Notes under the pieces: model-generated
What the model was told of the DNA's origin: nothing
Seen by the model: only the letters and a program-made list of their open reading frames with translations
Database searches by the model: none
From: an uncultured archaeon
GTDB taxonomy: Archaea > Thermoplasmatota > Penumbrarchaeia > JASLWR01
Assembly: GCA_964342815.1 (NCBI GenBank)
Contig: CAYFHS010000018.1
Coordinates: 65,517-77,077 of the forward strand
Reading direction: 5' to 3'
Length of the DNA: 11,561 nt
Made by a program: the position numbers and the translations under genes
Shown: in pieces, positions 7,601 through 11,561 of the stretch
Position numbering within the stretch: the stretch's first letter is position 1
Layout: each line of letters begins with the position of its first letter

Positions 7601-8211
7601 TCCATGTTGTACAGAAAAATAGTAATCTGGTGTATTCCGTCCACGTCCGGTTCAGGACCGAAAACAGAGGTATCGGTGGGATAGATGGTTTTATTGAATT
7701 CATTCTCCAGGTTATCGATCTGTCCCTGATTGTAATTTGCACCAGTCTCGACGTAAATGAAAGAATGCTCACCCACACTTCTGCATGTTGCGCTTTTCCG
7801 CTGCCATCGTCCGTTGTCGTAATTGATCGCCCAGAGATTTTTCCGGTCACCTACGTTATCCCTTCCGGCCCTTGGAACGCGGGCGTTCACCGGAGGGGCT
7901 GAGGCTTTGAGACCACATTCGGCAAGATATTGCGTAGCGTCTACCCAGGTACCGTTATTACCTTCATGGAAATCCGGAAGTGGGCCAATATCAAGGAAAG
8001 CCTCACTATTACGGTGTTTAATAATCGAATCATCTTTAATTTTATCATCCATATCACTGCGATCCAATTCGGGAATGGAGTTCTTTGGATATTTCTCGTC
8101 GAAAACGATTTCATCTCTGCTAACAGCTCTTGATACCGGGCTTACCTGCCACATATTAAGAAGAATGAATCCTGCGGTTAGAAAAATCAATACCTGTCTG
8201 GGAGATGCCAT
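1672..8211 (-). CDS. Giant (~2180 aa) single-pass cell-surface zinc metalloprotease, M30/hyicolysin-like gluzincin domain plus multidomain stalk, TM helix, double zinc ribbon and acidic cytoplasmic tail
   Basis: One uninterrupted 6.5-kb ORF. ATG 8211 (MASPRQVLIFLTAGFILL, signal peptide) is preceded by GGCGG and is preferred over TTG 8247. HEFQH lies at 7441-7455 with a downstream NEG third-ligand motif at 7390-7398. The TM helix is at ~2938-3000, followed by RRKKRR. Two CxxC-x10-CxxC ribbons lie at 2701-2874. Stop is TAA 1672-1674. Confidence 0.92.
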   Translation of the reverse strand: MASPRQVLIFLTAGFILLNMWQVSPVSRAVSRDEIVFDEKYPKNSIPELDRSDMDDKIKDDSIIKHRNSEAFLDIGPLPDFHEGNNGTWVDATQYLAECGLKASAPPVNARVPRAGRDNVGDRKNLWAINYDNGRWQRKSATCRSVGEHSFIYVETGANYNQGQIDNLENEFNKTIYPTDTSVFGPEPDVDGIHQITIFLYNMDGAWGTGGYFTSINEIVNPNSPNYPYSNHMEIFYIDLADLSTWGKQIAAHEFQHMIHYNGDFNENAWINEGCSDLAIIKNYGFSTGVSGHVNSFKNNHDKDLTVWGQTNQDYGASAAFLDYLEEHYGGESFIKSLVDENSNSINGVNRVLAAYGYKERFTEVFKNWTVANKLDNPSVAGGVYNYKNITLRIPDTGSYNYTHYPLGKTNRNVNHWAADYYRFTDGIGMLEFSFNGNDGASFALMIIKEGPGGTDVEELKLDSKQDGDFGILGFGPTYTDMVIVVACVSSGSGKVSYSFTADTSNKPLIIHEPLENNNNINGPHNINATIVDPDYNLNVSSLRLYFNKNGSRYYTELMLNNVGNDDYSAMIPGPSENVTIFYYLSAADADMNITTSPFVANPLDNSTVHSFMVIPDYTPPVIQHLPLVDTVFNGPFEIILKVTDDWFLDLDSISLFYNRTSSPAFQQLKMESTGVPDQFKAYIPVIPMGESIYYYFTARDSYMIPNAARLPVADYFSFRVLVPAGVLLVDDDEAGNYTSFDNWYRDALNYTGLAFDSYRVPPVEDGPNATILNRYDTVIWETGDEWGDYMTEPESGRTLTNIDLVSLSEYLDQGGNLFLSGSFIGLEIRYDIFFSNYLHMDYEGAVNYTGPQSVYGVEDDRIGDNISITLSNRSSDSRDRFMCNYSVSDGTEVIFNVPEKNFDVGFRIDEEDYRAVYLSFPFEEISQDIHRNTIMARILEFLSPNLLISHDSLENTVDLTDPYIVEMSVESGKPVEFAYLVYSIDGTNEKTVPMVYSPTEGIYSGNVPAQPENATVYYYIMAQNGRKCRGFHPADMSLGNMDTWNRFKVFANDIEPPFIVHEPKFDVLYVDNYTFYANAWDNVALNRSSFSVEYTFDSTLDESRVMRSKFSKMSQDLNIAHVEGPPGNIYYRIVVADIVGNIMTYPFSGYHELNIYFHDNLERDILNWSFPGSQNIWELTERNSTTFPPLSLSGQTFPNDFFISTGADSNYTPGVDSRIISPPIDLTRAKVPELSFYMWANLTGYQGAEPGDQVFDELILEAYDKSYTTIATYNHSTLPMENEWMRLKVDLSDFSGKVIRISWHIVDRDITTQSRGVALDFIKITGNFNNTAPELHSYSIFPESGFNDTLFTFNVTYTDLENDEPEYVGLVLDDTFIAMTPLEDWDKNLLDGKNYSVNVLLHPGNHSYRFNTRNLFDDISTPMIQGPTVHSPNSPPKFSIPDLEVFAGHQLNYTVQAIDPNNDPLFFFDNSNLFDIDIVTGAFSFTPGLDDVGKHFVWIGVGDWNEVIWNGFNLTVLPNNPPVVAIPGNLTAYVDIEFNFTIEAIDKENDTLTFSSANPKFNIGRDTGEIRFTPAYRDMGRHEITVDITDGISLTVTISFNLEIVRLNLAPMLLNISVTPKRGNESTRFYFTAVYLDEEDGEPEYVRVYIDNESFNMTEINSDAFSYDVGLVYQYKGTLKAGNHSYYFECKDDSGSNENSVYKSPTHYIYINSTQSNEEVDQDEEDTKGLMAEYLQWIVLGFVLLLTLLVIIMVSVFRRKKRRQQEKEQEKKLSSTHSCPVCKADIGKYETVCPNCDYRLSKRSNIYKKKDDYPETRTCPGCYSKVSSKEIKCPYCKIKLGRKKTKKVIEDAPEIVDFTIEKEPTLKYKKPEPRRRTRKRTLKKKEKEDEGKPKLIFKRPDDYPVEANDDEVEEEDFFEMELAKIVGEREDEEDQVKHRELHTEKSNEDGIKEDHDEDEEIDESLREDYTDHVQAGILEDAEESHEADYVMESFGDDSVGGEGIWDDDEESSAGIWDSDEGSSAEGIWDGEEESSAVGIWDGEEESSSEGERDSDEESGGKSFQWLDADEIVRDDDDDIWDDDDYEIRDTFVLSDEDIDEERSYAEAVFEVYDSYSEAGDAVASWDEDDAEDFFEIIEETPEEMRSKVPLTKKKLKKKRKKGVKAIRNDKEFVADWDD
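2035..2205 (-). repeat. In-frame 33-36-bp tandem repeat (5 units) encoding G(I/E)(W/R)DxxEESS(A/S)x in the acidic tail
   Basis: On the + strand, units begin gct(t/c)... at 2035, 2071, 2107, 2143 and 2176. They encode GIWDDDEESSA, GIWDSDEGSSAE, GIWDGEEESSAV, GIWDGEEESSSE and GERDSDEES. Confidence 0.92.
2701..2874 (-). other. Double zinc-ribbon module on the predicted cytoplasmic side of the protease
   Basis: CPVCKADIGKYETVCPNC and CPGCYSKVSSKEIKCPYC, each with two CxxC pairs, about 20 aa after the TM helix. Confidence 0.85.
3391..3912 (-). other. Two tandem cadherin-like/Ig-like (He_PIG-type) repeats in the protease stalk
   Basis: NSPPKF...VQAIDPNNDPLFF...IDIVTGAFSFTP and NNPPVV...IEAIDKENDTLTF...IGRDTGEIRFTP. 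Both show the NxPP and AxDxDxD-like motifs typical of this fold. Confidence 0.75.
6691..7860 (-). other. Catalytic region of the gluzincin-type metallopeptidase (M30-like) plus adjoining beta domain
   Basis: ATCRSVGEHSFIYVE...FGPEPDVDG...GGYF...YSNHMEIFYID...AAHEFQHMIH...WINEGCS...YGASAAFLDYLEEHYG. The HExxH motif and downstream Glu ligand are intact. Boundaries are approximate. Confidence 0.8.
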
Positions 8212-8273
8212 ATAACCGCCCTGTCTATTAAAAGTAAACGCAACCAAGGTGAAAAGTCATTTTTTTCATCTTA

Positions 8274-8299
8274 TTTATATATCTCACATTATTATATAA
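8274..8299. promoter_or_regulatory. TATA-box candidates in the divergent promoter region, probably serving the protease gene
   Basis: TTTATATA at 8274-8281 (TATATAAA on the minus strand) and the self-complementary TTATATAA at 8292-8299, about 60-85 bp upstream of ATG 8211. Confidence 0.5.
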
Positions 8300-8402
8300 T
8301 CAAACAGTCGTAATATAATGGAACCAATCGCTTTAAAAGTTTTCCCTATTCTATGGGTATTGATAAATAATCATAAAAAGACAAAATACCGAAAGAAACC
8401 CG

Positions 8403-8436
8403 TTGATAATCAGCGGTCATTATCAATATTTATAAT
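8403..8436 (+). promoter_or_regulatory. Perfect 8-8-8 dyad TTGATAAT-cagcggtc-ATTATCAA immediately upstream of a TATA box (TTTATAAT); putative operator
   Basis: The inverted repeat is at 8403-8426 and the TATA-like octamer at 8429-8436. The dyad covers the position where a BRE would sit. Confidence 0.65.
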
Positions 8437-8561
8437 CACAATTGCGTTCATCATCTGAAACTCAGCTAATGATATCAGTCCTTGGTATAACCGAGGATAG
8501 ACGCTTGGGAACATTTTTAATCTTCTTTACTATAATATATGTTAATATTCTCTATTTCAGG

Positions 8562-10805
8562 ATGATGATTGACATGGATGGAAAAGACATTTCGTCACTT
8601 CAACCCGCTGGTTTGAACCTCAGGGTCGAGGGAATTTATACACCGGATATCGGAAGGGGTATTACTTACGTTGATGTGGAATCCATGCGAAAGCTCAAGA
8701 TCGCACCCGGGGATGTCATCGCTATAAGCGGCACCAAGACCACACCTGCAAGATGCTACCCCGACAGGAAAGGGAAGGGTAATTTTATTCGGTTGGATCC
8801 TATAACCAGGCTAAATGCAGGTTTGGGACGGGAAATGGTTGTGAAAGTGGCAAAAGCAGGGTTCAAGGAGGCTCAGAAGATTGTTCTTGCACCCGATTCG
8901 GATACCTTTCTCGAGGGGGGGCCAAACATGGCCAAGAGACTGCTCAACGGTAGGGTTTTCAAAAAAGAGGACATGGTGGAGGTATATATTGGTAAGGGGA
9001 TCGGGAAGAATAGTGTCCGATGGCATGTTCTCAGTACCCTTCCATCCGCAGGATTCCTGAAATTTACAACTGAAACCGAACTTAAGATCAGAAAGAAACC
9101 CGACGAAATGGCGGCTGAAAAAGCCCAGGGCATCTCATATGATGACATTGGCGGACTTGACGATATTCTGCGCCAGATACGTGAGATGGTGGAACTCCCC
9201 TTTACATGCCCGGAAGTATTCGAAAAAGCGGGTATCGAACCTCCCCGAGGTCTTCTGCTTCACGGTCCTCCCGGTGCGGGAAAAACGTTGATCGCAAAAG
9301 CTATAGCCAATCAGACCGGAGCATATTACACATCAATAAGGGGTCCGGAGATCATAAGCAAATGGGCCGGCGAGAGTGAGAGCAACTTGAGAAAGATATT
9401 CTCGGAAGCATCTGAAAATTCCCCATCAATTATCTTCATCGATGAGATTGATTCCATTGCTGCCAGAAGAGACTCCGATGATGCAAAGGAACTTGGAAAA
9501 CGCCTGGTGGGCCAGCTTCTCACATTGATGGACGGACTTCAATCCCGTGATAAGGTTATTGTCATTGCTGCCACGAACCGTCCCAACTCCCTCGATCCGG
9601 CTCTCAGGAGACCAGGCCGATTCGATCGTGAGATAGAAATACAAGTACCGAATCAGGCGGGAAGAAGGGAGATACTTGATATATATCTCAAAAACATGCC
9701 ACTCGCCGAGGACGTTGATCCCGTTGAGCTCGCCAAATTGTCCCCTGGTTATACAGGTGCGGATATCTACACTCTGTGCAAGGAAGCGGCCATAGAGGCC
9801 ATAAACAAATACCTTCCCAAGGACCCGAAACAGGCGCTCGATCCCACAGCATTCCAGGACCTGCAGGTTAGTAACGAAGATTTCATGAACGCTCTGAAAA
9901 AGATAACTCCCTCCGAACTGCGGGAGATCCCCTCGGACGTGTCACGTATTCAGTGGGATGAAATAATCGGCATGGAGGACATAAAAGAACGGCTGAAGGA
10001 GATTGTTTGCTGGCCGCTTATACATCCTAAATTATTCCAGTACATGAAGGCAAAACCACCCCGGGGAATTCTGTTGTACGGCCCGGCGGGTTCCGGCAAG
10101 ACCCTGCTGGGAAAGGCGTTATCCGAGGCAAGCAACAGCAACCTTATATACATGAGCTCATCGGAAATAATCAACCGATGGCAGGGAGAGAGTGAGAGTA
10201 CAATTAGGAAAATATTTCAGAAAGCGAAGAGAACGGCACCGTGCATAGTCTTCCTTGATGAGCTTGATGTAATAACAAGCGTTCACGGGGGTATAACGGA
10301 TGATCTTAACCGGCGAATAATAACGCAGTTGAACGCCGAGTTCGACAAGCTGAGCGATTACAATAACGTCGTGGTTGTGGGGGCAACGAGAAGCATCGAT
10401 CTCATGGACCCGGCTCTCATCAGTCCCGGCAGACTGGAAAGGTTGGTGGAGGTGACCCTCCCCGATATCGGGACTAGAAAATCCATAATCGAGGATCAGC
10501 TGAAGGGAAGACCTCTTGCAGGTGACATCTCTTATGACAAGGTGGCGAAAATGTGTCCCGATTTTTCTGTTTCGCAGTTGAAAGCTCTATGCGAGGATGC
10601 GTCTCTTGTGGGAATTAAAAAATATCTTAAGAACGTAAAAGAGGTGGATCCCGGCAGCGAGAAGTTCCCGACTCAGGGACCGCTCATAGACATGGAAAGT
10701 CTGAAGACAGCCATCAAGGGTATCATACACCACAAGGAAGCATTAAAGAAGAAATTCAAGGGAAAGGAAAAGACAATAGAGCGGTCCAGTGCCATGTATA
10801 TGTAA
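8562..10805 (+). CDS. cdc48: Cdc48/VCP/VAT-family AAA+ ATPase, divergent paralogue with degenerate D2 ring and C-terminal HbYX motif
   Basis: The N domain is a double-psi barrel (LRVEGIYTPDIGRGITYVD...IRLDPITRLNAG). D1 has YDDIGGL, GPPGAGKT, IIFIDEID and AATNRPNSLDPALRRPGRFDREI. D2 has GPAGSGKT, IVFLDELD and GATRSIDLMDPALISPGRLER. The protein ends SSAMYM, with TAA at 10803-10805. The start is uncertain: ATG 8562, 8565 or 8574 match the usual family length, but the frame is open back to ATG 8469 and TTG 8442. Confidence 0.93.
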   Translation: MMIDMDGKDISSLQPAGLNLRVEGIYTPDIGRGITYVDVESMRKLKIAPGDVIAISGTKTTPARCYPDRKGKGNFIRLDPITRLNAGLGREMVVKVAKAGFKEAQKIVLAPDSDTFLEGGPNMAKRLLNGRVFKKEDMVEVYIGKGIGKNSVRWHVLSTLPSAGFLKFTTETELKIRKKPDEMAAEKAQGISYDDIGGLDDILRQIREMVELPFTCPEVFEKAGIEPPRGLLLHGPPGAGKTLIAKAIANQTGAYYTSIRGPEIISKWAGESESNLRKIFSEASENSPSIIFIDEIDSIAARRDSDDAKELGKRLVGQLLTLMDGLQSRDKVIVIAATNRPNSLDPALRRPGRFDREIEIQVPNQAGRREILDIYLKNMPLAEDVDPVELAKLSPGYTGADIYTLCKEAAIEAINKYLPKDPKQALDPTAFQDLQVSNEDFMNALKKITPSELREIPSDVSRIQWDEIIGMEDIKERLKEIVCWPLIHPKLFQYMKAKPPRGILLYGPAGSGKTLLGKALSEASNSNLIYMSSSEIINRWQGESESTIRKIFQKAKRTAPCIVFLDELDVITSVHGGITDDLNRRIITQLNAEFDKLSDYNNVVVVGATRSIDLMDPALISPGRLERLVEVTLPDIGTRKSIIEDQLKGRPLAGDISYDKVAKMCPDFSVSQLKALCEDASLVGIKKYLKNVKEVDPGSEKFPTQGPLIDMESLKTAIKGIIHHKEALKKKFKGKEKTIERSSAMYM

Positions 10806-10838
10806 ACAGCACAAGTCGTTTAACCGGGATTTGGCAGG

Positions 10839-10888
10839 GAAGTTCTCTTTCTCTCTTTCCTTAAGACCGGGTTTGTCCTTTTTTTCCG
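10839..10888 (+). terminator. Candidate archaeal pyrimidine/oligo-T terminator after cdc48
   Basis: A pyrimidine tract ttctctttctctctttcctt and a T7 run (ctttttttcc) lie 35-80 bp after the stop codon. Confidence 0.45.
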
Positions 10889-10985
10889 ATATTGATTATT
10901 TTTACAGAAAATGATGGATGATTTTCATCAAATGGTCTCTTTTCCGGAAATCACTGCTTGTTTTCATCGTTTGCTATCATTATTC

Positions 10986-11480
10986 GATATTATTTCCGAC
11001 AATCAGCAATAATTATCATCATTGGGAATTGGACTAACATTTTTCGGTGATCCGTTCTCGCAGACAAAAATATCATTTTTTCAAAATTACCCTTTATTGG
11101 TTCATATAATAATGATTCATAATCACTACCGAATATTTTTTCCGGTAATCACCGTTAATTATCATCTATTAGAATTACCCGCCGCGATTTTTCGGCATTT
11201 AATTTTACTTTAGGACTTCGAACCTTTTTTCTGAGGGTGTAGCTTTCGAACCTTATAACAACGATTCATACTCACGGGAAAATATTTTCTGCGGTAATCA
11301 CAATTAATTATCATCTCCGGGAATTAGCAGCTTCGTTCTAATTCGGTGATTTACTTTTCACATAGGATTTCGGATCCAATTTCAATGGCGGGCTTGATCT
11401 CGAACCTTATAACAACGATTCATACTCACGGGAAAATATTTTTTCCGATAATCACCGTTAATTATCATAACCGGGAATTA
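10986..11480. repeat. Degenerate non-coding tandem array, four ~50-80-bp cores with 146-154-bp period
   Basis: The core (a/g)atattttttccgataatcaccgttaattatcat..gggaatt occurs with anchors at 10986, 11132, 11281 and 11435. The last two copies share an identical 43-bp block (11246-11288 = 11400-11442). A weaker partial copy is at ~10940-10968. Confidence 0.85.
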
Positions 11481-11561
11481 TGGAGCCTAATATCTCACAG
11501 TAATTCTTTTCATCATATAGGAAATACAGACCATGCCTACTTTGTTCCGCAGAATCAGAGA

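Follow-up and report, generated by a model that had tools for sequence, protein, structure and literature searches.

In a 4.35-Mb archaeal MAG (G000; 89% complete, 45% GC), which judging by the nearest relatives of its Cdc48 and wHTH proteins probably belongs to Thermoplasmata, a 21-bp AT-rich dyad stands both upstream of a gene for an atypical Cdc48-family AAA ATPase and repeatedly downstream of it. From its likeness to the element before the archaellin promoters of this archaeon and to the published CsmR motif, the dyad is probably a transcription-factor binding site. We give a probability of roughly 0.5 to the reading that the sites are clusters of operators for a small wHTH regulator, either CsmR-like or a paralogue, and tie the atypical Cdc48 to archaellin-family genes. 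The window, that is, the whole stretch of 11,561 nucleotides that was analysed, lies on contig C18, and its features are collected in Table 1.

Table 1. Features of the window (G000:C18:65517-77077; the right edge is the contig end). Positions are those of the window.
Feature	Position	Strand	Basis or remark
Giant secreted protein gene, ~2180 aa	1672..8211	-	ORF list and N-terminal signal-like sequence
Intergenic region, 350 bp	between giant gene and cdc48		shared by the divergent genes
Perfect 8+8 palindrome TTGATAAT-cagcggtc-ATTATCAA (N8 spacer)	8403..8426	.	read directly
Three octamers in 13-bp phase: GATAATCA, CATTATCA, TATAATCA	8405..8438 (starts 8405, 8418, 8431)	+	
Distal TATA-like box TTTATAAT	8429..8436	+	overlaps third octamer; sequence only
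Proximal TATA-like box	8531..8539	+	~27 nt before ATG at 8562; sequence
Cdc48-family AAA ATPase gene, atypical paralogue	8562..10805	+	Pfam CDC48_N and two AAA domains
Array unit 1, most decayed	10972..11035	+	21-mer core 10998-11018
Array unit 2, five 13-bp-phased elements	11118..11181	+	core 11144-11164, then AGAATT
Array unit 3	11267..11330	+	core 11293-11313, then GGAATT
Array unit 4	11421..11484	+	core 11447-11467, then GGAATT
Left end of multi-copy IS/MITE, interrupts array and ends contig	11504..11561	+	58-nt end at at least 8 other places

The Cdc48 of the window scored 708 bits against TIGR01243, under the cut-off of 802. Only about seven close orthologues were found, at 70-76% identity, and the next matches fell to 46%; a search of genome contigs gave nothing but distant paralogues with at most 46% identity. 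The paralogue and its orthologues (P0022-P0029) form a small clade that is sharply set apart. In three genomes the gene stands amid archaellin and ArlD/E modules, and a toxin-antitoxin pair is often inserted directly downstream of it. As for its expression, the proximal TATA-like box is the likelier cdc48 promoter, from which the mRNA would be leaderless or carry a short leader. A Pfam search with the product of the neighbouring giant gene returned no match; the gene contains five copies of a 36-bp repeat at 2031-2206, and in the first ORF of the window, at 829-961, a 51-bp unit is repeated in tandem (2.6 copies, 96% matches). The mcrA gene was absent from the MAG at its 89% completeness.

A preliminary description of this DNA had placed the dyad at five sites, one upstream of cdc48 and four downstream, and all five were found where it had put them. 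The perfect palindrome that it had reported next to a TATA box upstream of cdc48 was likewise confirmed by direct reading, as the palindrome is followed by TTTATAAT. The description had further noted the stretch taatcacaatt as common to 8433-8443 and 11295-11305; at 8433-8443 this stretch is the third of three octamers in 13-bp phase, each of which opens a degenerate WATCA-N4-TNAT element. The octamer cluster is positioned 125-160 bp before the cdc48 start codon and abuts the distal TATA-like box. An extra element, TGATAAATAATCA, was seen in phase at 8361-8373, 39 bp (3 x 13) before the first octamer.

The sites are far more frequent in the window than expected from its composition, since a search for GRTAATCA-N6-ATTATCA, allowing one mismatch, gave six matches against 0.01 expected (200 shuffles). 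Without mismatch the pattern occurs five times in the 4.35-Mb genome, namely four times in the window and once on contig C49, and three related genomes contained no exact match. When a matrix was derived from the array only (leave-one-out) and run over 8.7 million genome positions, the cdc48-upstream site came out with 22.6 bits as rank 1 of all non-array positions. This site is 2.6 kb away from the array, and the chance of such proximity is about 0.002.

Downstream of cdc48, the window holds 756 nt of non-coding DNA, in which the four units, spaced 146, 149, and 154 bp apart and all pointing in one direction, form a direct repeat. The arrangement of one dyad upstream and four downstream is real, but the four downstream copies cannot be counted as independent occurrences, because they are units of a single ~150-bp direct repeat. 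The pairwise identity among the units is 85% in the 21-mer core vs. 41-52% in the heads and tails, and therefore the core has been held while the remainder of the unit drifts. The units contain five 13-bp-phased elements, e.g., CATAATCA, GAATATTT, GGTAATCA, AATTATCA, and GGGAATTA. The autocorrelation of the sites is high at lags of 13 and 26, but it is also high at lags of 10, 16, and 19, so that by itself it does not decide for a 13-bp periodicity. Each site is better read as a set of 13-bp-phased WATCA elements than as a simple dyad. BLAST of the array against the genome gave no relatives besides the C49 unit and the IS end, and in DNA searches of 40 relatives the array was found nowhere else.

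The array is broken off by an IS whose 58-nt end also terminates many other contigs of the assembly. The terminus of contig C49 is the right end of the same IS, and miniature copies on contigs C6 and C3 carry both ends. About 85 nt from the IS right end, in the same orientation, C49 carries a fifth unit, GGTAATCACGGTTAATTATCA, whose distance of 140 bp (57+83) keeps the phase of the array. Some 660 bp beyond this unit follow genes for an archaellin (PF01917) and for ArlD/E (PF04659); between the last array unit and the conserved promoter of this archaellin gene there are ~560 nt. In G003, a genome of another genus in the same family, the genes for the orthologues of Cdc48 (72%) and of the archaellin (78%) share a contig, and their order and orientation are those of G000; there cdc48 is also preceded by an ArlD/E-like gene and a gene for a 667-aa archaellin-domain protein. 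The ENA contig ERZ24794666 (13,658 bp), with a 76% Cdc48 orthologue, reads giant gene (- strand), cdc48, kinase, 254-aa archaellin, and ArlD/E, and has spacers of 856 and 1150 nt. From the matching IS ends, the in-phase fifth unit, and the cdc48-archaellin order in G003 and the ENA contig, we conclude that C18, the IS, and the reverse-complemented C49 are contiguous. As a consequence, the downstream sites fill the spacer between cdc48 and the archaellin module. The gap at the IS itself remains, because a look-up with the 766-aa form of Cdc48 returned the same contig, just 64 nt longer, and did not span the IS; an exact-protein look-up with the start codon chosen here gave no match.

Further copies of the IS are present on C43, C21, C23, C2 (two copies), C16, and C5, and MITE-like derivatives of 330-390 bp are located at C6:45456-45844 and C3:137660-137988. 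The first ORF of the IS starts at 11525 (MPTLFRRIR...). When the IS ends were compared with the array units, the two were found to be unrelated, and the units were on this ground rejected as part of the IS.

The layout of the array unit (21-mer, 6 nt, GGAATT) matches the upstream part of a set of archaellin-type promoters, which read AATCA-N4-TGAT(A/T)A, 9 nt, GGAATTGAAC, CGTG, and TTTTATATA (TATA). This layout defines six promoters in three genomes: two on contig C14 and the third promoter on C49 in G000, two in G001, a genome of the same genus, and a single one in G003. The C49 promoter has a 15.1-bit dyad match at the equal relative position. A composite unit/promoter pattern had no matches in the genome other than the five units and the pair of promoters on C14, in a scan that is circular because the pattern was designed after both sets had been seen. 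Cross-scans with separate matrices are less circular and point the same way. With a promoter-only matrix, over 8.7 million positions, the archaellin promoter on contig C24 ranked 5th, array units 56th, 90th, and 110th, and the cdc48-upstream site 418th. With a 38-nt array-only matrix, the cdc48-upstream site ranked 6th and the C24 archaellin promoter 7th.

The top matches of the dyad matrix in G000 are confined to the cdc48 locus and C24, which are also the only places with more than 20 bits. The C24 match (C24:13119-13140) lies ~150-190 nt upstream of a stand-alone archaellin gene, and the promoter there consists of two palindromes of the TATCA-N4-TGATA type that overlap with a shift of 13 bp, which accounts for the 13-bp phase of the elements. 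Beyond the known sites, 16% of the next 100 matrix matches were intergenic vs. 22 ± 5% in column-shuffled controls. These matches are background-like, and therefore there is no wide regulon; the regulon is small. The preliminary description had called for such a genome-wide matrix scan, looking for promoter bias and for conservation in relatives: the bias did not extend beyond a handful of sites, but positional conservation in relatives was found.

This conservation is partial. In G003, a 20.8-bit site is located 355 nt after cdc48, and three of the 25 near-matches in the whole genome fall on the 25-kb contig with this gene. The site sits between convergent genes, where a promoter is not needed, and further ATTATCA pairs, 26 bp apart, occur after the second archaellin gene of G003. 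Upstream of the G003 cdc48, only the 9-mer TGATTATCA is shared, and the 21-mer is not conserved there. At locus L128, which encodes a 72% Cdc48 orthologue, at least four exact 13-bp repeats of TCATCAGTTATTG end ~150 nt before the cdc48 start, as in G000, with a TATA-like box at equal distance before ATGATGAT. The locus was not found in G001, although this genome belongs to the genus of G000, and the archaellin promoter of an orthologous archaellin and wHTH gene pair (L123) has no such motif. A pattern scan of metagenomes yielded 13 single matches, which is about the chance expectation; four of the 13 were set aside as unrelated 11-13-bp minisatellites in gene-poor contigs of one sample. The corresponding scan of viral sequences gave one chance match.

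The regulator class can be approached through the archaellin promoters. CsmR (HVO_1209) of Haloferax volcanii is a winged-helix protein of ~112 aa (~13 kDa) whose gene lies directly upstream of archaellin genes, and ChIP-seq assigned to it a 34-bp promoter-proximal motif with the core TATCA(N4)TGATA (PLoS Genet 2026, PMC13286277). The G of TGATA is found in 48 of the 50 published CsmR sites, and the TATA box follows ~13 nt downstream of the core (PMC13286277). In G000 there are 13 perfect TATCA-N4-TGATA cores, six of them intergenic compared with an intergenic share of 15% of the genome. Two of these six are at archaellin-family promoters, one on C24 and one on C20, where the core is upstream of an ArlD/E-like gene and a gene for a 632-aa archaellin-domain protein. 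Both C14 archaellin promoters match the core at 9/10 positions. The six sites of the window match it at 7/10 (TAATCA-N4-T(C/A)ATTA) and lack the near-invariant G, which places them outside the core as published; they keep the WATCA half, while the other half reads TCATT or TAATT. They are thus a variant of the CsmR core and possibly the target of a paralogue. The core alone is not specific, as a perfect AATCA-N4-TGATT palindrome, TTAATCACGGGTGATTAA, was found at C2:271103-271116 (L131 ~2604) in the promoter of an RHH and PIN toxin-antitoxin pair.

The resemblance to the CsmR operator consists of an ATCA-N4-TGAT core with a 4-nt spacer that is promoter-proximal and tied to archaellin genes. A small wHTH gene beside an archaellin gene is also common to both systems, although here it is a candidate only. 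On the other hand, the window sites are 13-bp-phased direct WATCA elements, they flank a cdc48 paralogue and form an array with a 150-bp period, and the host is not a haloarchaeon. The distance from the core to the TATA box differs as well, being 6 nt at cdc48 (8429) and 23 nt in the archaellin-type promoters vs. 13 nt in Haloferax. The preliminary description had proposed the operator of an undescribed regulator. An operator is still the best reading of the sites, but the class of the regulator is probably a described one, given the match of the promoter element to the published CsmR motif.

A candidate for the regulator is encoded directly downstream of the C24 archaellin gene. The wHTH gene there (C24:11869-12195) has a 109-aa product and five paralogues in G000, on C6, C65, C7, C23, and C5, and the pair of archaellin and wHTH (109-147 aa) genes recurs in a metagenomic relative. 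The protein was modelled with a pLDDT of 87 as a winged helix with a small beta domain. Phr (TM 0.57) and PH1932 were among its best fold matches, a likeness that is generic, and the protein atlas and fold search indicated only a generic ArsR/MarR/Phr-like winged helix. The Phr operator at a Pyrococcus AAA+ (cdc48-like) gene offers a parallel, as there the promoter of a Cdc48-type ATPase gene is the target of a wHTH protein, but the fold match to Phr is one common to winged helices, and the Phr heat-shock site is not known to be related in sequence to the sites described here. Another known regulator, EarA of Methanococcus and Thermococcales, is a wHTH activator that recognizes one to four short repeated elements placed directly before the BRE/TATA of the first archaellin gene, with the consensus TACATA or A(C/G)(C/G)TACA(T/C) upstream of arl operons (PMC5512572, PMC10665913). 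The sites here resemble those of EarA as short repeated elements upstream of an archaellin BRE/TATA, but the consensus is unrelated in sequence, and TACATA-type repeats were absent from the sites.

In the reading that we prefer, the dyad would be the binding site of a sequence-specific regulator and would belong to the same element family as that upstream of the archaellin-type promoters. In the window the element occurs as sites that overlap in 13-bp phase; their WATCA half is intact and the other half is degenerate, an arrangement that yields the outer GATAAT-N8-ATTATC dyad. A CsmR-like or paralogous small wHTH protein may bind them cooperatively and so couple the expression of the cdc48 paralogue with that of archaellin-family genes. 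The array of five clusters could serve as an upstream region with multiple sites, as a sink for the regulator, or as a series of weak promoters that depend on the factor, and the IS insertion now divides the cdc48-archaellin spacer that holds them. The analysis shows the sites, their statistics, the common layout, the synteny, and the partial conservation; that a protein binds, its identity, and its role as activator or repressor are inferred. Several of the results above speak against this reading, namely the 7/10 match to the CsmR core, the unequal distances to the TATA box, the poor TATA boxes of the array units, the ~560 nt to the archaellin promoter, the position of the G003 site between convergent genes, the missing site at L123, and the missing 21-mer upstream of the G003 cdc48.

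The main rival is that the array arose by tandem duplication of a piece of an archaellin promoter and is decaying without a function, with the upstream palindrome as a sixth relic or a chance match. The units are indeed homologous copies with a gradient of divergence, and no good TATA box is present in them at the canonical place. Moreover, the locus is under rearrangement, as seen from the IS insertion and from a truncated archaellin on C49 that has kept an intact promoter, and its failure to turn up in G001 fits as well. However, the difference in identity between core and flanks speaks for selection on the core. The upstream site has no flanks in common with the array units, yet it is the best match genome-wide and a perfect palindrome, and similar sites or 13-bp repeats stand at the same places in two other genera. 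We consider this explanation unlikely.

Still less probable is that each 150-bp unit is a tandem sRNA gene, in which a TATA-like head ~40 nt before the dyad would serve as promoter and the dyad would be an operator at +10 to +30 or an RNA hairpin. The heads before units 2-4 do read (C/T)TATAA, T-runs lie between the units, and the G/A variation at position 2 preserves G-U or A-U pairing with U19. However, unit 1 has no head, and conservation does not extend to the tails of the units. When the five units were folded to a consensus RNA, a 6-bp dyad hairpin of -2.5 kcal/mol was the only structure, with neither covariation nor compensatory change, and an Rfam scan of 8200-11561 returned a single sub-threshold chance match.

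The preliminary description had also suggested looping across cdc48, or recombination or architectural sites bracketing the gene. The sites do occur on both sides of cdc48, 2.6 kb apart, and oligomerisation could be favoured by the presence of several sites in phase. Nevertheless, a bracket on the downstream side of the gene was not upheld, as the array continues past the window and the IS toward the archaellin and arlD/E gene pair, and the orthologous cdc48 locus L128 has only 10 nt present after the gene. Neither an integrase or recombinase gene nearby nor att-like evidence was found. Bracketing of any of these kinds is in our opinion very improbable.

TGATAAT is the half-site of Fur, and with their half-site letters GATAAT and ATTATC the sites are identical in this respect to Fur/Zur/PerR boxes (7-1-7, TGATAATnATTATCA); moreover, G000 has a Fur-family gene, and the repeated phased elements look like iterons of a replication origin or partition system. 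Both identities are nonetheless largely refuted. The Fur/Zur/PerR box was rejected because the spacer is 8 nt here and not 1, because no metal-uptake genes are among the matrix matches and a metal regulon is absent, and because the sole Fur-family gene has its own canonical 7-1-7 box, TGGTAATCATTACAA, upstream (C12 ~119575-119590); the preliminary description had been right to dismiss Fur. That box resembles a Zur- or PerR-type autoregulatory site. A replication origin (ORB) was rejected because orc1/cdc6 genes are on contigs C29 and C1 and the array units all point in one direction, and a phage or plasmid element because viral or plasmid relatives were not found.

A bolder form of the preferred operator reading would be a CsmR-type motility regulon outside haloarchaea that also controls an atypical Cdc48 amid archaellin/ArlD/E modules, with the five-unit, 150-bp-period array of half-sites as an enhancer-like or decoy element. 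We put this forward tentatively and regard it as rather doubtful. To our knowledge, few archaeal motility regulators are known, namely EarA, the Arn network, and, since 2026, CsmR, and we know of no phased half-site operator array of this kind described in archaea. If true, the CsmR-type element would not be restricted to haloarchaea, and a small regulon would join archaellin-family genes and a specialised Cdc48 paralogue, hinting at a role of the unfoldase in the biogenesis or turnover of filaments. Operator modules that are arrayed in tandem and have no gene belonging to them would also be unusual as a regulatory architecture in archaea.

Some further features of the archaellin loci were observed. 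On C49 (L006), from 15184 downward on the minus strand, an archaellin gene is truncated: behind a perfect archaellin-type promoter and 5' leader, no more than ~23 of its codons are left (MNRDRAKARIRTDEEAEMGVGTL), which run into the 3' end of a convergent gene for a 1876-aa Laminin_G and protein-kinase protein. Tandem repeats are located directly upstream of the archaellin-type promoters, with 24-25-bp units of TTCATATAATCTATTGAAAACCAC in G000 (L006 ~15210-15290, minus strand) and ~50-bp units in the G003 counterpart (L011 ~17540-17740). Between the two genera, the arlB promoter with its ~105-nt leader shows 78% identity across 173 nt (L006 17226-17119, minus strand; L011 ~15560-15675), and the leader has complementary ends, GAGAG...CTCTC, and may be a structured 5' UTR.
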